Positions 4,091-54,231 of a stretch of DNA of 64,000 bases are shown piece by piece. Source of the stretch: Eledone cirrhosa (taxonomy: Eukaryota); the NCBI GenBank assembly GCA_964016885.1, contig OZ024742.1, positions 269,576,001-269,640,000 on the forward strand, written 5' to 3'. A program made the translations under genes and the position numbers. Position 1 is the first letter of the stretch. Each line of letters begins with the position of its first letter. The notes beneath the pieces are model-generated. The model saw nothing but the letters and a program-made list of their open reading frames with translations. It ran no database searches and was not told the DNA's origin.

Positions 4091-4222
4091 GAGAGACAGG
4101 AAGAAATAGAGATAGACAGGGGACAGACGAAAGCTATGGGATGGGTGTACATTGAGTTCATAGTTGTAGGCTACAAATTGCACTTAAGTATCCATTGATA
4201 ATCAATTATATATATATATTAT

Positions 4223-5440
4223 ATTATATTTAGAGTTTAAACTCAAAGTCATTTACAATTAATCAGCTCAAAGAAAGAAGCATTTCCGAGCAGTGAAATA
4301 CAAGTTAATATATATTAATATATGATAAACACATACGTGTGTGTATTGCAAGAGACAAAGTTAGCTAGAATGAAATAAACTAATTAAAAAGAAAACATTT
4401 GTCTGTCTCGATATAAGTCAATAAAGACAAGCTTATATTGGCAAAAGCCGTGATTCCTGGACAAATTTAAATTTCAAAATCCAAACCTGCTCCGTAGATA
4501 AATTTGAACTCCGAAACCTAAATATGTTTCGCAACGATGGTATAAAAAGTGAAATATAAAAAGTGAAATATTCAAATCTTCTGTGCTTATCAACAGGAAT
4601 CCAGTAAAATTAGTACATTTCACCTCCAAAAATTTTGTAGGACTGATTCGCACGTGGTATAACCAGCTATACTAGCCATCCCATACTCACAGTGCTAGAA
4701 ATAACAGCCATTTATATGGGATTAAAAATTAGCTCTACAGTTAAGGAGCAATAGTATTATATTATATTTAGAGTTTAAACTCAAAGTCATTTACAATTAA
4801 TCAGCTCAAAGAAAGAAGCATTTCCGAGCAGTGAAATACAAGTTAATATATATTAATATAAACACGTATGTGTTTATCATATATTAATATATATTAACTT
4901 GTATTTCACTGCTCGGAAATGCTTCTTCTTTGAGCTGATTAATTGTAAATGACTTTGAGTTTAAACTCTAAATATAATATAATATTATTGCTCCTTATCT
5001 GTAGAGCTAATTTTTAATCCCATATAAACGGCTGTTATTTCTAGAAATGTGAGTATGGGATGGCTAGTATAGCTGGTTATACCACGTGCGAATCAGTCCT
5101 ACAAAATTTTTGGAGGGGAAATGTACTAATTTTACTGGATTCCTGTTGATAAGCACAGAAGATTTGAATATTTCACTTTTTATATTTCACTTTTTATACC
5201 ATCGTTGCGAAACATATTTAGGTTTCGGAGTTCAAATTCATCTACGGAGCAGGTTTGGATTTTGAAATTTAAATTTGTCCAGGAATCACGGCTTTTGCCA
5301 ATATAAGCTTGTCTTTATTGACTTATATCGAGACAGACAAATTGTATTCTTTTTAATTAGTTTATTTCATTCTAGCTAACTTTGTCTCTTGCAATATAAA
5401 CACGTATGTGTTTATCATATATTAATATATATTAACTTGT
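4223..5440. mobile_element. Non-coding PLE-like unit (~538 bp): 1.2 tandem copies followed by an inverted circularly permuted copy
   Basis: attatatttagagtttaaactc occurs at 4223 and 4761; 4861-5440 is the reverse complement and wraps across the unit junction; (TA)n flanks. Confidence 0.85.
5142..5222 (+). ncRNA. Variant-core (U3-A8) hammerhead-like motif; mirror copy on minus strand at 4517-4597
   Basis: cctg-TTGATAA-GCA...TGC-GAAA-cata-TT/tagg, with one mismatch in helix III. Confidence 0.45.
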
Positions 5441-6089
5441 ATATATATATATATAAAATTGATTTTCTTGCCCTAGATATCATGTTACAAAATCATTTAT
5501 CATATGTGTGTAGGTGCATGTATGGTGTATTCTGCCTTATAACACTTACTTAACCCGCCCTTGATCTATATCAGCGAAGGATTAATTACGTGGGACTACG
5601 AGACAACATTATAACGTTAAGTTCACAAAAAATGATGGACTGTACAGCGACGTTTTCTGATGTGATATTGACTCTAGCTTATAAACACAGCATTCTATCG
5701 ATTATGTAGTCTGATTGAATTTATGATCACGATAACAAAATATTATATTTATGCCAACGAATATTATAATATTAGCGTTTATTTAATGGTGGTTATCAAT
5801 CTCATTAAATTAGCATTAATGCATTTAACCACACATCTAACGTATGAGCTAAATATCACAATGAGTCTGATGGCAACTACGTTATATTTCACATTTATAA
5901 CTTGTGTCTGACAACACTTATGAACAACACATCCTGACCCTTATTCTGATTCGCGTCAATATGTAATTATATTGGGTATACATCTACTTACATATCTGTA
6001 TATGAAATACAAGTTTATTTCTCGCACTATTTTCCCTCATTCTCTATATTCCTACATACGAATACACACATGCAGCCCATCCCCACATA

Positions 6090-15448: not shown

Positions 15449-15735
15449 CAAATGACGAAACGAAATTAAATTTCGTTTCGTTTGTAACTCACTTTTGTAT
15501 GACTGACGCTTAAACAATTAAGTTAAAAAATGACATCTACATATGCATACTGAAATACTAGTGTGTATATGAATACACACACGTATACATATGTATATGT
15601 AACAAGTCTTTCACTGGTTGCTTTACTGTGAGCACCCAGCTATTCTGTATGTAAACACACAGACAAACCGGTTTTTAGAGTCATACTGGTTTTGAGGGAA
15701 CACCTTCCCTCTATTCTCCAGAAAGCCAGACAAGG

Positions 15736-15780
15736 AATATTGAACTAGTTTCGTTGTTGTTACAACTCATCAGCAATATT
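15736..15780 (-). ncRNA. Minimal type I hammerhead motif
   Basis: aatattg-CTGATGA-GTTGT-aaca-ACAAC-GAAA-CTA-GTT/caatatt: 7-bp helix I, 5-bp helix II, palindromic helix III (AACTAGTT). Confidence 0.8.
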
Positions 15781-15958
15781 TACCTATCTACCGGCCCCTC
15801 TGGAGAATTGTAAAAGCACATATCGTTATATTTATATATATATTAATAAAAGGATTTCCAACTTTGTCTGATTTACTCGTTTTATTTACAATCCTTTAAA
15901 ATTTATAATGGCATTAGAATGAAATAGTTTGGTAGAATATTAAATGTTAAGTGTTAAT

Positions 15959-16362: not shown

Positions 16363-17428
16363 TTATTGTTCATTTATCTTGGGTTTGAATTTATCAATAC
16401 AATTATTTTCTTTGATTTTTCTCCTGATTTCACTTGGGCTGTGTAATTTGTAGAATGGGAATATTATAAATATTCCCTGACCATATGTTGCTAGATGGTT
16501 ACTTAGGAGTATCTGACACACATTAGGGTCTCTGATTTGGTGTCGGTGTACCCGTACACGTTCCGATAATGCATTTCCAGTTTGACCGACATATAGTTCT
16601 TCACAATTCGAGCATTTAATGCAGTAAATTAGATTTCTGCTTTTGCAGTTCATATTTGCATTTGGAAATTTTTTTCCAGTTCTTGTTTTCATATATTGAC
16701 CAGCGTGTATGGATTGACATGTGCCACATCGAGTATCATTGCATTTAGATACAGTGAATGATTGGTCTTTGTTGTTATGGTCAAACTTTGCTTTTGTTAA
16801 TAATTGCTTCAAATTTTTCTGCTGTCTTTTACTAAGTGTCAAAGATCGATCTGTGATTAAGCCTTTTAATTCATTACTTTGAGCAATGATCGGTAGGTTT
16901 GCTTTGGCAGTGTTGAAGATATTCTGGTGACATGGGTTGTGTGTCATTATAAATGGCATGACCAGTCCTTGGTTTCTTCTTCCTTGGGTTGTCCTACGTT
17001 GTTGTATAGGTATTTTTATAGCCCGCTGTATGCCATTTTCTATAAGTAGAGATGGGTATTTTTGTTTGAGCAAAAATTCTCTTAATTCTGTTAGGCGTTT
17101 GTACCTGGTATTCGTATCTTCTACAATGGTACAAATTTTTCTGGCTAGGCAGTATGGGATGTTGCGTTTTGTATGAGGTGGATGGCACGACTTAAAATTC
17201 AGATATTGATGGGTGTATGTGTGTTTATAATATATATCCGAGGTAGTGGTGGTGTCGTTTTTGATTATCATTATATCTAGGAATGGTAACTTGGTACTAC
17301 TCATCTCTTTTGTGAAGTGGATAGATGGGTGTAGGTTATTCAGGAGGATATTGAACTCATCCAGAGTATCTAGAGATTCTTTCCACATGATGAAACAGTC
17401 GTCAGGTTATCTCTTCCAAGATTTTTCA
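16363..17428 (-). mobile_element. 5'-truncated Neptune-type PLE: RT C-terminus/thumb plus GIY-YIG endonuclease
   Basis: LPFLDI, SCHPPHTKRNIP, linker CNDTRCGTC, NLIYCIKCSNC..LYVGQTG..LSERVRVH. Confidence 0.9.
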
Positions 17429-24416: not shown

Positions 24417-24483
24417 TTTTATTATGCGCATTTCAAAAACAAACATCATCAAGCAATAATATTTGTGTTTTCATCAGATAAAA
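24417..24483 (-). ncRNA. Type I hammerhead motif
   Basis: Exact reverse complement of 26028-26094. Confidence 0.8.
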
Positions 24484-45620: not shown

Positions 45621-45693
<73 letters not shown>

Positions 45694-45702
<9 letters not shown>

Positions 45703-46390
45703 GTGAGGTTTTTTTTACAAAATGAAAAATAACCGAGGTGTCCTACACGAGTGAAAGTATAAAGAAAAAGAGATGAAATCGAAAATGCAACTGAAATCTT
45801 ATTTTTTTTTTAAATATATATATTTATTTGGTTCCTTTACCGGTTTCGCAGTTCTTATACTTTTCAAAAGGTGAGTTGAGATGGAGGGTCTGTGGTTTTT
45901 CTCACATCTGGTTGGTCTCTGAATGTTACTTGTTTTATATGGAAAAAGTGGCTCGAAATTCCAGGTTTTTCGAGAAGTAATTTGATTGGTTTGTCAATAA
46001 TTATAATAAATTTCGCGCCAGTTCGCGTTACAATAGTTCTTCAAATAAGAGAGGGGGGGGGGGTTATCACAGGTTGTTTTTTCATATATGAGTGTTTGAA
46101 TTTCTTTTTACTTGAAAAAAGGAGGCTCACGAAGGCTTTTTTTTGGTTGGTTATAAATGAAATTTGGCTGTCACGTGAACAAGTTTTTATTACATTTTTG
46201 CGCCCTTATTTGGAAAACTATTCTGTAGTCTTTATAGTGAATGTTATGACAATGGAGAGATAGTGGTCAAGAGAAAAGGGATTGGGAGAAATGTTCTGGT
46301 TCAGTGAATATGGCCAGCTCGCCGGGGTGTCAGAGTTCAGATTTTCTATTGAGACTGAAAATATATATGTTTATTTGTGTGCTTGTGTGT

Positions 46391-46445
<55 letters not shown>

Positions 46446-46697
46446 TATTGGAAGAGGATTCTATTAGTAGAGATGGGGGAGGGAGTTGTGTGTGTGTGTG
46501 TATATGGGTGTTATGTGTGTGTGTGCGAGTATGTTAAGATGGAGAGAATATATATTTTGTGTGTGTGTATATATATATGTGTGTAGGAAAGTGGTTCTAT
46601 TAGTAGAAATGGGGAGGGAGTTGTCGGTGTGGGGGTTGTTATGTGTGTGTATGGGTGTTATGTGTGTGGGAGTATGGTTAGCATGTTAAGATGAAGA

Positions 46698-46732
<35 letters not shown>

Positions 46733-47400
46733 GTGTGTGTGTATGTGTGTGTGTAGGAAAGTGATTCCTTTAGTAGGAATATTTTTGAATGAACATATTT
46801 TCCTTACTTTTTTGTGTTTGCTGTTGTATTGCCAGTGCAAAAGTATGTCAAGGTTTATTTAGTTCGGGTTTTTATTTTCTAAAGTAGAAGGCGTTATGTG
46901 TGTGTGTGTATGTCATATTGTGGTGTTGACATAATGTATATTAAACCTTATTTAATGTTGGTCTATATTTTTGAATAAACATATTTTCCTTATTTATTCG
47001 CATTTGTTCTGTTGTATTGTTAGCGCAAAGGTAGAATGGGAAGACTTGGAATTTGGGTGTCTTATTAATTGCGCAAATGTCTAGATATGCACTTAGTTGT
47101 ATCTGTCTCGTGGTTGGATCTCGTAATTGTTGGCGATGAACTGTCATTCTGTTTCTGAGTGTGAGTTTAGTTTGTCCTATATAATCTTCATTGCATCCTT
47201 TACATTTAATGGCTTAAAATAGATTTTTTGATGAGCAAGTGAAGTGATTTTTTACAGTAAAATTTTGTCCTGATTTAAATGTATACGTGTTGCCTTCAAT
47301 GAGGTGAGTGCAGGTTCCACAATTAGAGCGACCACATTTTTTGATACTTGGTTGTGGGTTTGTGGTAGGTAATTTGGCATTGGTGAGTAATGTTTTCAGT
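45694..47400 (-). repeat. Inverted pseudo-LTR
   Basis: Reverse complement of 47414-49079, including the GIY-YIG region (with a TAA stop). Confidence 0.95.
45834..45871 (-). ncRNA. U3-A8 variant hammerhead, helix II mutated
   Basis: cctt-TTGAAAA-GTAT-aagaa-CTGC-GAAA-CC-GGTA/aagg. Confidence 0.55.
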
Positions 47401-47414
47401 GAAAACATTACTCA

Positions 47415-47873
47415 CTGAAAACATTACTCACCAATGCCAAATTACCTACCACAAACCCACAACCAAGTATCAAAAAATGTGGTCGCTCTAATTGTGGAAC
47501 CTGCACTCACCTCATTGAAGGCAACACGTATACATTTAAATCAGGACAAAATTTTACTGTAAAAAATCACTTCACTTGCTCATCAATAAATCTACTTTAT
47601 GCCATTAAATGTAAAGGATGCAATGAAGATTATATAGGACAAACTAAACTCACACTCAGAAACAGAATTACAGTTCATCGCCAACAATTACGAGATCCAA
47701 CCACGAGACAGATACCACTAAGTGCACATCTAGACATTTGCGCAAGTAATAAGACACCCAAATTCCAAGTTTTCCCATTTCACCTTTGCGCTAACAATAC
47801 AACAGAACAAATGCGAATAAATAAGGAAAATATGTATATTCAAAAATATAGACCAACATTAAATAAGGTTTAA
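47415..47873 (+). pseudogene. Uninterrupted, start-less copy of the linker plus GIY-YIG domain in the upstream pLTR
   Basis: CGRSNCGTC...NLLYAIKCKGCNEDYIGQTKLTLRNRITVH...LSAHL...PTLNKV*; no internal stop, unlike the other two copies. Confidence 0.85.
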
Positions 47874-48896
47874 TATACATTATGTCAACACCACAATATG
47901 ACATACACACACACACATAACACCTTCTACTTTAGAAAATAAAAACCCGAACTAAATAAACCTTAACATACGTTTGCACTGGCAATACAACAGCAAACAC
48001 GAAAAAGTAAGGAAAATATGTTCATTCAAAAATATTCCTACTAAAGGAATCACTTTCCTACACACACACATACACACACACACAATATATATATCTTCAT
48101 CTTAACACGCTAACCATACTCCCACACACATAACACCCATACACACACATAACAACCCCCACACCCACAACTCCCTCCCCATTTCTACTAATAGAACCAC
48201 TTTCCTACACACATATATATATACACACACACAAAATATATATTCTCTCCATCTTAACATACTCGCACACACACACATAACACCCATATACACACACACA
48301 CACAACTCCCTCCCCCATCTCTACTAATAGAATCATCTTCCAATACACACATACACACACACACACACACACATACACACACACAAGCACACAAATAAAC
48401 ATATATATCTTCAGTCTCAATAGAAAATCTGAACTCTGACACCCCGGCGAGCTGGCCATATTCACTGAACCAGAACATTTCTCCCAATCCCTTTTCTCTT
48501 GACCACTATCTCTCCATTGTCATAACATTCACTATAAAGACTACAGAATAGTTTTCCAAATAAGGGCGCAAAAATGTAATAAAAACTTGTTCACGTGACA
48601 GCCAAATTTCATTTATAACCAACCCAAAAAAAGCCTTTTCGTGAGCCTCCTTTTTTCAAGTAAAAAGAAATTCAAACACTCATATATGAAAAAACAACCT
48701 GTGATAACCCCCCCCTCTCTTATTTGAAGAACTATTGTAACGCGAACTGGCGCGAAATTTATTATAATTATTGACAAACCAATCAAATTACTTCTCGAAA
48801 AACTTGGAATTTCGAGCCACTTTTTCCATATAAAACAAGTAACATTCAGAGACCAACCAGATGTGAGAAAAACCACAGACCCTCCATCTCAACTCA

Positions 48897-48934
48897 CCTT
48901 TTGAAAAGCAGAAGAACTGCGAAACCGGTAAAGG
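48897..48934 (+). ncRNA. Minimal hammerhead with compensatory U3-A8 core
   Basis: cctt-TTGAAAA-GCAG-aagaa-CTGC-GAAA-CCG-GTA/aagg; AATAAA at 48940; 170 nt upstream of the ORF1 ATG. Confidence 0.8.
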
Positions 48935-49100
48935 AACCAAATAAATATATATATTTAAAAAAAAAAATAAGACTTCAGTTGCATTTTCGATTTCATCTCT
49001 TTTTCTTTATACTTTCACTCGTGTAGGACACCTCGGTTAATTTTCATTTTGTAAAAAAAACTTCACTTTCTAATATATACCCACCACACGAAGACCGAAA

Positions 49101-50303
49101 ATGCCACCAAAGTCTCAACAAAACAACAACTCACTGAACCAGGACATCTTAAATGAACTCAAAGAGATTTCCTCTAAACTCTCAATTTTGACCAACAAAG
49201 TGGACCAAATACACATCTATAAAAAAGGACCCCACGAAGAAACAGAAAATACCCAAGAGACGAATATTACTCCATTATTAACTAAGCTAATCGAAACCAT
49301 TGAAACAGCAATGCTCCAAAAGCTTGAACAACCGTTAGAACCCAATCTACGAGATGTCCACTCAGTGAGAAACACCCTAATCAACATATGGACTCAAAAG
49401 CTCACAGCCCGCAAATTCGCCCTTTGGAATCTCCTAAAAAATAATGGCAAGGCAGACATATATGAAAAGTGGCTAAACTGTACCCCAATCATCCTCCCCA
49501 AAAAACTCCAAATAAAACCCATCCCGAATGAACCAGAAAACCAACAAAGACTTAGGGAAAAGATGGCATTGGAAAAATTTAAAACAGAAATAGAACTGTT
49601 GCGATTAAGAGCCAACTCCAACGAAGAAAAATTCAAGTCACTCGACCAACAGATGGACACAGAAATCTCAAAGCACTCTGAAGGCCTACTCTACAAAAAA
49701 AACCTAAAACTTTGGAAAGAAAACTGTGAGGATGAAGAACTAACATCCCTCCAGCGATGGGAACAAAACGCCACCTGGTTCAACAACTACGAAATGGACT
49801 TCAAAAATGAACAACATACAGGTAACCCATTTTTAAAACAAACTAAAACTCACACACCACATGCACAACAAATAACAAAAAAAGTAACAAAACGTCCAAC
49901 ATACCCCCAGCAAAACTATAACGATAATCCCAGAAACCATAGACAAAACTATAACCCCACGTACAAAAACCAAAGATCCCCGAACACAAGGCAGGACCTG
50001 ATCCGCAGATCAATACCCACACAAAACCTATTCCAAAACCGTAGACCCCTGCCCACACAGAGCCTGTTCCAAAACCGTAGATCCCAACCCACACAAAGGA
50101 ACCAAATCTACAACTCGGACTATCAACAAACCGAACCTCAATACGTCCGAAACTTCTATACAAGACCACACAACAACAGGGGAAATACCATTAGATATAA
50201 TAATACCAATGAAAAAACATTCCAGAAAAATCATGTTTTAGACCAAGGCTACAGGACTCACGACACTCGGTGGCACAAACCGATTTTGAAAAACCGAAAA
50301 TAA
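49101..50303 (+). CDS. PLE ORF1, 400 aa: putative coiled-coil protein with Q/N/R-rich disordered C-terminus
   Basis: Intact ATG-TAA frame; heptad-like stretches (LNELKEISSKLSILTNKVDQI; LEKFKTEIELLRLRANSNEEKFKSLDQQM); 12-aa repeat RRxxPTQxLFQN. Confidence 0.8.
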   Translation: MPPKSQQNNNSLNQDILNELKEISSKLSILTNKVDQIHIYKKGPHEETENTQETNITPLLTKLIETIETAMLQKLEQPLEPNLRDVHSVRNTLINIWTQKLTARKFALWNLLKNNGKADIYEKWLNCTPIILPKKLQIKPIPNEPENQQRLREKMALEKFKTEIELLRLRANSNEEKFKSLDQQMDTEISKHSEGLLYKKNLKLWKENCEDEELTSLQRWEQNATWFNNYEMDFKNEQHTGNPFLKQTKTHTPHAQQITKKVTKRPTYPQQNYNDNPRNHRQNYNPTYKNQRSPNTRQDLIRRSIPTQNLFQNRRPLPTQSLFQNRRSQPTQRNQIYNSDYQQTEPQYVRNFYTRPHNNRGNTIRYNNTNEKTFQKNHVLDQGYRTHDTRWHKPILKNRK

Positions 50304-52027
50304 TTAACATTTCAAATACAAACCTCTCAGCCCAACAAGTAAAAATTCTCTCCAAAGGTCTGAAATTCACACCAACACCACAATACCCTAACCCCAACGA
50401 GATAAATGACGATATCTCACACTTCTGTAGAAAATTACGTCTCACAGAGGAATTCCTTGACAAGGAGAATAACGACGAATCAATTGTACGGAATAAAAGC
50501 AGCTACAACCCAACAAAAAGTAGAAACAGAGTTCTGGACAAATTTTGTGACCACATAGCTACCTTCCCATACCATGAACTACCACAACCTAAACCCAAAC
50601 CCAACACAAGTCGAAGGGAATGGGAGATTATCCATGAACTAAAAAACAATACGGACATTGTAATTAAGGAAGCGGACAAGGGAAGTACTGTTGTCATTAT
50701 GGAGGCTGAAAAATATAAAAATTCTATGTTCTCTCTCTTACAAAATACTAATTACTATAAAAGAGTAAAAAACTACCAGCAATCAAAAATAATGACCAGA
50801 TTAAACACACTGATTTATCGATACCAGGAACACCTAACTAAAAAGGAACGCGATTATTTAACAAATTTTGAATACAAAACCAGCAACCTTTACGGACTTC
50901 CGAAGATCCACAAATGTAAAATAATCAACGATGCCTGTAAACAATCCACCTCAGCCTGCGTGAACACACAATACCCCACACAACTTAAATTAAGACCAAT
51001 TGTAGCGGGCCCACAATGTGAAACACACAGATTGAGCAACTTTATAGACATACTACTGAAACCAATACTGAAACACATACCAAGCCTTGTAAGAGACGAT
51101 CTGGACCTCTTAAACCACCTCCCCAAACATGTCAACAACGACACTATTATTCTGTCTTTCGATGTAGTGAATCTCTACACAACGATCCCACACCAATACG
51201 GACTAGAAGCAATAGGATTCTGGCTAGAGAAATATCCCAATGAGATACCTGACAGAATAGAAAAAAGCTTCATCACCGAGGGATTAAAATTCATCCTACA
51301 GAACAACTTTTTTGATTTCGATGGCAATACTTACAAGCAAATATCGGGGACTGCGATGGGCACAAAAGCCGCTCCAACTTATGCCAACTTAGTCATGGCA
51401 TACTTAGAAGTCCAGATATATGAACAGTCCAAATCAAAATACGGATTGAACTTCCACAAATATTTATCAGAGAATTGGAAACGCTACTTGGATGATTGCC
51501 TCATTCTTTGGTCCCACACACTCGACCAACTGAAGGATTTCAAAAACTTAATAAACGGCATCAATAACCCCATCCAATTCACAATGGAATACAGCCAAGA
51601 TCAACTCCCATTTCTGGACATCTTAATCACAAAAAAAGACACAAATATCGAAACTGACATACACTACAAACCAACAGATTCCAAACAATATCTGCTATTC
51701 ACCTCCAACCATCCAAAGCACACGAAGACGAACATTCCTTTTAACCTAGCAAGAAGAATTTGCACAATTGTCTCCAATTATGAAACGCGAAATAAAAAAC
51801 TTCAAGAATTAAAGGAAATTCTACTAGAGAGAGAGTACCCACTATTACTAATAAATAATGGAATAGAAAGGGCTAAAGCAATAGGCATTGATGAATTACG
51901 GAAACAGAAACAAATTCAAGGTACGTCCAATATTCTATCATATATCTCAACACACAACCCAAGAAATGCGGAAGCTTACAACACTATACACAATAACATC
52001 CCACTACTAAAACAAAACCAAGAATGA
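50213..52027 (+). CDS. PLE reverse transcriptase (frame open from 50213, -1 relative to ORF1)
   Basis: LSKGLKFTPTP, IKEADKG, LYGLPKIHK, LRPIVAGP, SFDVVNLYT, GTAMGTKAAPTYAN, WKRYLDDC, LPFLDI; ends at a probable 1-nt deletion near 52019. Confidence 0.95.
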   Translation, partial: KNIPEKSCFRPRLQDSRHSVAQTDFEKPKIINISNTNLSAQQVKILSKGLKFTPTPQYPNPNEINDDISHFCRKLRLTEEFLDKENNDESIVRNKSSYNPTKSRNRVLDKFCDHIATFPYHELPQPKPKPNTSRREWEIIHELKNNTDIVIKEADKGSTVVIMEAEKYKNSMFSLLQNTNYYKRVKNYQQSKIMTRLNTLIYRYQEHLTKKERDYLTNFEYKTSNLYGLPKIHKCKIINDACKQSTSACVNTQYPTQLKLRPIVAGPQCETHRLSNFIDILLKPILKHIPSLVRDDLDLLNHLPKHVNNDTIILSFDVVNLYTTIPHQYGLEAIGFWLEKYPNEIPDRIEKSFITEGLKFILQNNFFDFDGNTYKQISGTAMGTKAAPTYANLVMAYLEVQIYEQSKSKYGLNFHKYLSENWKRYLDDCLILWSHTLDQLKDFKNLINGINNPIQFTMEYSQDQLPFLDILITKKDTNIETDIHYKPTDSKQYLLFTSNHPKHTKTNIPFNLARRICTIVSNYETRNKKLQELKEILLEREYPLLLINNGIERAKAIGIDELRKQKQIQGTSNILSYISTHNPRNAEAYNTIHNNIPLLKQNQE

Positions 52028-52539
52028 AAAAAGCCCTTGAAACACACAAAATAATCAAAAGCAAAAGACAACCAAAATCACTGAAAACATTACTCACCAA
52101 TGCCAAATTACCTACCACAAACCCACAACCAAGTATCAAAAAATGTGGTCGCTCTAATTGTGGAACTTGCACTCACCTCATTGAAGGCAACACGTATACA
52201 TTTAAATCAGGACAAAATTTTACTGTAAAAAATCACTTCACTTACTCATCAAAAAATCTTATTTAGGCCATTAAATGTAAAGGATGCAATGAAGATTATA
52301 TAGGACAAACTAAACTCACACTCAGAAACAGAATGACAGTTCATCGCCAACAATTACGAGATCCAACCACGAGACAGATACCACTAAGTGCACATCTAGA
52401 CATTTGCGCAAGTAATAAGACACCCAAATTCCAAGTCTTCCCATTTCACCTTTGCGCTAACAATACAACAGAACAAATGCGAATAAATAAGGAAAATATG
52501 TTTATTCAAAAATATAGACCAACATTAAATAAGGTTTAA
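52024..52539 (+). pseudogene. PLE linker plus GIY-YIG endonuclease (frameshifted from RT, internal TAG at 52264)
   Basis: CGRSNCGTC linker; NLI*AIKCKGCNEDYIGQT...RMTVH...LSAHL. Confidence 0.9.
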
Positions 52540-53615: not shown

Positions 53616-53653
53616 CCTTTTGAAAAGCAGAAGAACTGCGAAACCGGTAAAGG
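53616..53653 (+). ncRNA. Minimal U3-A8 hammerhead in the 3' pLTR
   Basis: Identical to 48897-48934. Confidence 0.8.
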
Positions 53654-54231
53654 AACCAAATAAATATATATATTTAAAAAAAAAAATAAGACTTCAGTTG
53701 CATTTTCGATTTCATCTCTTTTTCTTTATATATATATATATATAGGTACGGCTGCATGTCTGTGTTTATGTATGTTCACGTGTGAATGTATCCGTGTCGC
53801 TGTGATTATGTGTATATGTATATATGCGCCCTTGAAATTTTGTTTGCGTTTAAAACAATGACTCAAATTATGTGCACTAAATTAATTTCCACAAATTAGA
53901 ATTTCATAAAACATACACCAGAGGTGGATATTTTTATATACAAACCTATGTATGTATTTGAGATATATTTTGACGCGCATATCAACAAAATGAGTGACTA
54001 AACTCACGCAGTTTCTCTCCAAAATAAAACTCTGTTTCTTCATTTAATTCTTGTTTTCCTTTCTAATTCTTACTTTATCTCTCACTCTATCTTCTGGTGA
54101 AGGTCTAAGTTTTAAATCTTTTTCCATTATATCAAGCAGTAAAGTAATATTTATGTTCATTGTCCTGTATCATTCATTCCCTTGCAGTGATTATATATTT
54201 ACTTTTTGCTGATCAATCAATCTATCTATTA

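Follow-up and report, generated by a model that had tools for sequence, protein, structure and literature searches.

Ends of genomic insertions in a young Penelope-type element (PLE) family of Eledone cirrhosa indicate that its short copies were very probably templated by RNA that the element's own hammerhead had left uncut. On balance we favor slow cutting that takes place only in a dimer, such that most RNA is likely copied uncut; a minority would be cut and circularized, and the resulting 4,719-nt circle would serve as template for full-length copies. The motif concerned, at 48897-48934 of the window (the whole 64-kb stretch of DNA analyzed here), is almost certainly a PLE hammerhead. Because the family is young, uniform and very large, the places where its insertions end tell which RNA templates were used. 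The element has the following features in the window:

45690-47402, minus strand: inverted pLTR arm comprising the end of the endonuclease, the 3' UTR, the hammerhead and the tail, with its 3' end at the +149 site in (TA)n
45834-45871, minus strand: third U3-A8 hammerhead copy, helix II damaged, inside the inverted pLTR arm
47412-49079, plus strand: direct 5' pLTR, which repeats the sequence from 52078 on and adds the tail
48829-48835, plus strand: TATA box (TATAAAA), 30 nt upstream of where the 5' ends cluster
48856-48870, plus strand: cluster of short-copy 5' ends (59 of the 91 copies that reach 48870)
48897-48934, plus strand: type I hammerhead with U3-A8 core and palindromic helix III, predicted cut after A48930
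48940-48945, plus strand: AATAAA followed by an A-run, candidate poly(A) signal
49011-49079, plus strand: the two points at which genomic copies end on the 3' side, +81 (49011) and +149 (49079), putative RT start sites
49101-50303, plus strand: ORF1, 400 aa
50213-52539, plus strand: ORF2 with RT (DKG motif), CX4CX2C linker and GIY-YIG endonuclease, in the -1 frame relative to ORF1
53616-53653, plus strand: second hammerhead, identical to the copy at 48897, predicted cut after 53649
53654-53730, plus strand: 3' end of the element, which continues for 81 nt after the predicted cut and into (TA)n

The coding region is that of an endonuclease-bearing PLE, RT followed by GIY-YIG. The RT matched PF00078 with an E value of 1.6e-6, just under the curated cut-off, and in the endonuclease copy within the pLTR the GIY-YIG domain matched PF01541 (E 5.3e-7); the 400-aa ORF1 product had no Pfam match. 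There were 957 homologues, many with both RT and GIY-YIG, and the closest named ones were Octopus proteins with 65-74% identity. The layout is also that of a PLE, with pLTRs, an inverted 5' copy, a tail at one end and a hammerhead in both pLTRs. The DKG motif, the CX2-5CxxC linker and the (TA)n targets are Neptune-type features, and Craig et al. (2021; PMC8557442) give the Neptune clade these same features together with a C-terminal GIY-YIG, a partial tandem with inverted 5' copy and a tail at one end only. The element is a young Penelope element, Neptune-like by its motifs. The first-pass annotation had called it near-intact, a fair description given that ORF1 is open, though the RT frame carries a stop at 52025-52027 and the endonuclease part of ORF2, which is in a different frame, is interrupted by a stop at 52264-52266. 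Both frames were open in 12 of 39 other long copies. ORF1 and ORF2 overlap by 91 nt, and ORF2 has no ATG for 162 codons. A slippery heptamer, T TTT TTA, was found at 50234-50240 in 36 of 40 long copies, the window copy deviating from it, and judging from the letters this is likely a -1 frameshift site. A figure legend in Craig et al. (PMC8557442) permits a frameshifted ORF1 in some PLE types.

Of 77 pLTR stretches of long copies that were matched by pattern, 76 contained TATAAAA. The pLTR upstream of and including it (48565-48835) contains GGCGCAAAA at 48565, CACGTG at 48592, GGCGCGAAA at 48749 and CCAAT at 48779, which we take to resemble E2F, E-box and CCAAT-box sites; such sites would fit a promoter for dividing cells. 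A sigma-70 promoter scan, whose model is not applicable to this organism, found nothing.

The motif at 48897 has the anatomy of a type I hammerhead, namely an N3-UGANN8-A core, GAAA, an NUH triplet, three helices and a Watson-Crick 3-8 pair. Helix I is formed by CCTT (48897-48900) and AAGG (48931-48934), the core TTGAAAA (48901-48907) carries U3 and A8, and helix II pairs GCAG with CTGC around a 5-nt loop, with G48908-C48920 as the G10.1-C11.1 pair. GAAA (48921-48924) is followed by the palindrome ACCGGT (48924-48929) and the GUA triplet. These helices, GAAA and the GUA site are as the first-pass annotation had described them, and its identical copy at 53616-53653, the same letters throughout, and the AATAAA within 10 nt downstream, starting at 48940, were also found. 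Its account did not include the third copy at 45834-45871 on the minus strand. Helix III is not stable in the monomer, where it has 2 bp around a 2-nt loop, as is expected of dimer-type motifs. The extra unpaired base between A9 and 10.1 and the long helix II, typical though not universal in minimal PLE hammerheads, are absent. A strict descriptor matched three times in the window vs. zero in 60 dinucleotide shuffles; the matches were the copies at 48897 and 53616 and a C3-G8 motif at 15773 on the minus strand. A loose descriptor gave eight window matches vs. 0.08 per shuffle. Neither of the U3-A8 copies at 48897 and 53616 was among the matches listed in an Rfam scan of the window, and the motif at 15720-15791 was among them with a score below the gathering threshold.

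The window holds further hammerhead candidates, two of which belong to a separate repeat family:

5138-5287, plus strand: extended type I hammerhead candidate with U3-A8, GUC and an 8-bp helix I
4452-4601, minus strand: inverted twin of the candidate at 5138

The core of the former is TTGATAA (5146-5152) and its predicted cut falls after C5279. An early reading had placed a second U3-A8 motif at 5142, and the extended hammerhead with its inverted twin is a better candidate than that description implied: a descriptor of the extended type had no match in 100 shuffles. The helix III loop limit of the first strict descriptor was too short for this motif. The family to which it belongs is seen at 4210-5450 as an inverted-repeat insertion in AT-rich flanks and has many relatives in the genome, in which the helix II loop varies by tandem duplication and the core, GUC and helix I show little change. 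At 15736-15780 on the minus strand there is a canonical C3-G8 hammerhead whose palindrome is ACTAGT; a second fragment of PLE RT-endonuclease (16363-17406, minus strand) lies about 580 nt upstream of it. Four more C3-G8 candidates lie at 436 (plus), 24477 (minus), 26034 (plus) and 56734 (minus); their helix III is palindromic or near-palindromic, and those at 24477 and 26034 form an inverted pair.

The U3-A8 core is the state of the family. With positions 3 and 8 left free, the 3.0-Gb genome contained 10,972 exact copies of the motif, of which 10,850 were U3-A8 and 42 were C3-A8; C3-G8 did not occur in this motif context in any of the 10,972. A reading of the core as a damaged canonical ribozyme was rejected on this absence, and the compensatory swap that had been proposed from the window alone holds for the family. 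The copies are too young for within-family selection on the motif to be visible. A first metagenome scan found no relative; a second, made with alignment, provided 80 related PLE loci, which were scanned with a descriptor free at positions 3 and 8. Eight hammerheads were detected, all on the coding strand and with palindromic helix III, vs. 0.2 matches per shuffled set, none palindromic. The 3-8 pair was Watson-Crick in all eight (six C-G, one U-A and one A-U, with no mismatch), and the helix II region was longer in all eight, with an extra base in several. The A3-U8 core candidate lies at L291:1969 of a related PLE locus. Within the family, 41 of 87 copies spanning the site have A at 48897, so that the outermost helix I pair is lost, and this pair was kept in 77 of 79 long copies. 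The two-base variant at 48896-48897 was found in 41 of 87 short copies vs. 2 of 79 long, ORF-bearing copies, and may mark an older or non-autonomous subfamily.

Much of this has precedent. Cervera and De la Pena (2014; PMC4209133) report a U3-A8 variant in Schistosoma PLEs with about 1,300 hits, and propose a dimer model, with low dimer activity in vitro and a ligated circle as a more-than-unit template; variant, dimer and circle have thus all been published before. Like the Schistosoma mansoni Cercyon PLEs of that paper, the element here has a type I hammerhead with short helix I and U3-A8 in both flanking repeats, is mostly dispersed in truncated copies, and has palindromic positions 15.2-16.2, with dimer cleavage and a circular template proposed. 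Unlike Cercyon as described there, helix II here is 4 bp directly after A9 (7-8 bp plus an unpaired base in Cercyon), N17 is A and able to pair with U3, and exact copies number 10,850 vs. about 1,300 heterogeneous hits. In the supplementary consensus, helix I is followed by AU-rich sequence, some examples of which resemble AAUAAA (PMC4209133), so nothing sets the AATAAA here apart. Natural U3-A8 cores in several hammerheads are described as active in vitro by Perreault et al. (2011; PMC3088659); the 3-8 covariation is the same, whereas helices and contexts differ. Our literature search on Penelope hammerhead ribozymes in octopus returned only PMC8557442, and a search for C3U/G8A wording returned no paper. 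The U3-A8 motif itself thus adds little, being published in PLE repeats, and Rfam-type searches miss such motifs.

Folding predictions point to a slow, dimer-dependent ribozyme for which cleavage is predicted. Closing helix III in the monomer would cost about 5.4 kcal/mol, and the 6-bp ACCGGT duplex is predicted at -8.3 kcal/mol. The palindromic helix III region and G10.1-C11.1 are those of the class of Cervera and De la Pena. The idea that the palindrome lets two ribozymes act as a dimer, raised earlier for this DNA, is accordingly a prediction of folding and also a published model. In the predicted monomer fold, U3 pairs with A17 and lengthens helix I (-6.4 vs. -4.7 kcal/mol), and in the context 48859-49079 the pairing probability of helix I is about 0.05. 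The U3-A17 pairing resembles the presumed C3-G17 trap (PMC3884650). None of the eight hammerheads in the relatives had an N17 complementary to N3.

The ends of short copies were mapped in the first 100 matches on contig C1 to the 23-nt word that starts at the cut, all of which could be mapped. Ninety-seven of the 100 extended upstream of the cut. At the 3' side, 31 ended at +81/82 and 57 at +146-150, nearly always in (TA)n, and none ran beyond +150 past the cut; the PLE tail is the 68 nt between the +81 and +149 sites. At the 5' side, the stop rate within 48856-48870 was 0.043 per base vs. 0.0008-0.004 on either side. The usual short copy therefore starts about 70 nt upstream of the cut and ends 81 or about 149 nt downstream of it. 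Because the stop cluster follows TATAAAA at 48829 by 30 nt, we infer that transcription starts near 48859. Among inverted pairs, 14 of 20 (loci L037-L096 on C1 of G000) combined a +81 arm with a +149 arm, as though the two target strands prime at separate sites. Genome-wide, AAGG continued past the cut in 94% of copies exact up to it, and 0 of 80 motif-anchored copies had a 3' end within 5 nt of the cut. Since most copies span an uncut ribozyme, most templates would have been uncut, which contradicts a linear cut-to-cut template. Starts exactly at 48931 were found in 3 of the first 100 copies. In the whole genome about 90 of 13,676 copies (about 1%) started at the cut vs. about 60 at a control position two bases upstream, which is itself biased by TA flanks; these counts were sorted by hand from 100 of 108 and 77 of 77 rows. 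With no clear peak over the control position, a genomic cleavage footprint at 48931 was dropped. Two contig runs of unknown kind repeated the +81 and +149 ends, had a depth step near 48860 and skipped 48930-48972; they possibly come from the window's own sample, are not independent and were not counted as support.

Long copies behaved differently at their 5' ends. We used the best 40 ORF1 matches of 330 candidates, a sample biased to the young subfamily of the window; L166, in which the start codon motif was unmatched, was left out of 5'-end mapping. Only 1 of the 26 long copies that reach 48856-48870 stopped there vs. 47 of 74 motif-anchored copies (Fisher p 4e-8). An RT stall at 48860 is disfavored, as long copies pass through the site. 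Most long copies exceed one unit and are seamless across both cut sites, and their 5' repeats extend up to 2.8 kb upstream of the cut. None of the 30 long copies that reach the cut started within 6 nt of it. Three of these 30 (L132, L138 and L150) begin at 48916-48917, in loop II, with different flanks.

The two pLTRs of an insertion differed by 0.74% vs. 1.79% between loci (25 loci, p 0.003). For alleles found in at least four loci, partner pLTRs agreed in 35 of 38 cases, and they had 6 of 76 private alleles in common. Half the within-pair divergence (0.37%) matched the load of private mutations in the body (0.36%; Spearman 0.78, 21 loci). The comparison left out L149, which has an extra small insertion, and loci with fewer than 80 comparable sites (between loci) or 200 (body load). 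These sequence comparisons indicate that the two pLTRs of a long copy were probably identical at insertion. The family is star-like as well as young, and in many cases a pLTR was no nearer to its partner than to the closest other locus; identical pLTRs are for this reason not specific to a circle.

The mechanism that we favor joins these patterns. Transcription would start near 48859, and RT, primed by nicked (TA)n DNA, would begin within the 5' UTR at +81 or +149 and run off the 5' end of uncut RNA, giving copies of 150-220 nt, often as inverted pairs with one arm per priming site. The 5' and 3' hammerheads would pair via ACCGGU, with U3-A17 pairing damping cleavage, and a minority of the RNA would be cut at both sites and ligated into the 4,719-nt circle, the template for full-length copies. 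A similar use of uncut RNA is known from PAc, a Poseidon element of Anolis carolinensis, in which reverse transcription initiates internally at two positions that delimit the tail; its ribozyme depends on protein, and uncut RNA is what the RT mainly uses (PMC11167929). Like PAc, the element here has AT-rich targets and a hammerhead upstream of its putative RT starts, and it probably also has two internal RT starts and uncut RNA as the main substrate. Unlike the element here, PAc has a C3-G8 core, one ORF and RT starts inside that ORF; the element here has a 68-nt tail in the 5' UTR, a separate ORF1 and two sites paired in inverted arms (PMC11167929). Points against our best explanation are the low pairing probability of helix I in its context, the broken outer pair in 41 of 87 spanning copies, the lack of a clear peak of starts at the cut, and the fact that HHR-less Naiads spread well (Craig et al., PMC8557442).

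How the hammerhead bears on the template can be read in other ways. In the model drawn from the first-pass annotation, both ribozymes cut efficiently, and the linear RNA of 4.72 kb released between 48931 and 53649 is message and template. Two identical ribozymes do flank both ORFs at exactly the unit distance of 4,719 nt, and some 90 copies begin at 48931. Such a unit-length RNA could still template long copies if ligated into a circle. As the usual template, linear cut RNA does not agree with the continuation into AAGG in 94% of copies or the lack of 3' ends at the cut in 80, with the 88 of 100 copies that run 81 or 149 nt past the 3' cut, with the 97 that extend upstream of it or with the 30 long copies that reach the cut, none of which begins within 6 nt of it. 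Its template role is largely refuted by end mapping, and the model as a whole is very improbable.

For long copies the data do not separate a ligated circle from strand jumping or read-through; we favor the circle, tentatively and with rather less confidence than an even judgment would carry, and the features of long copies fit a cut-and-ligated circle without proving it. In the strand-jumping account, which we think rather unlikely, a hammerhead dimer joins the ends of one uncut RNA or of two RNAs, and strong-stop cDNA made from +81 or +149 to the cap jumps to the 3' repeat in an LTR-like manner, short copies being failed jumps and long copies repeated ones. The order of TATA, start, hammerhead, AATAAA and priming sites is LTR-like, pLTR identity and more-than-unit length are explained without ligation, and the predicted dimer is stable, with U3-A17 pairing that would keep it uncut. 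A first-pass failure of about 64% should recur, yet a single long copy in 26 stops at the start site, so that an all-or-none class of jump-competent particles is needed, and the covariation of catalytic core bases in relatives is left unexplained. Unlikely, and a little more so, is that long copies come from read-through transcripts of partial-tandem masters, with pLTRs arising by tandem insertion and a hammerhead that trims precursors or is a passenger with no role in the template. Tandem insertion is the standing view of pLTR origin, as given by Schostak et al. (2008; PMC2377424), ribozyme mutants left PAc insertion in vitro unchanged and no reads ended at the PAc cut (PMC11167929), masters of a young family can carry near-identical pLTRs, and cut-site starts form no clear peak. 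Against read-through, the agreement of subfamily alleles in 35 of 38 cases and the six shared private alleles require regular homogenization, and 5' repeats reaching up to 2.8 kb upstream of the cut need promoters further upstream. Because the ligated junction would have the sequence of the genomic pLTR, divergent RT-PCR alone would not decide for the circle.

The role of the hammerhead in PLEs is still called unclear, both in PMC11167929 and in PMC8557442. With short and long copies contrasting in this way, circle, strand-jump and read-through models can be tested directly against one another. Extending our favored mechanism, one can picture two template pools, in which capped uncut RNA gives thousands of 150-220-nt copies and the circle gives full-length copies by rolling-circle RT, the U3-A17 brake setting the ratio; taken as a whole, this picture is rather unlikely. 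If true, it would be genomic support for the circular template proposed in 2014 for PLE replication, in which the hammerhead would then be indispensable.
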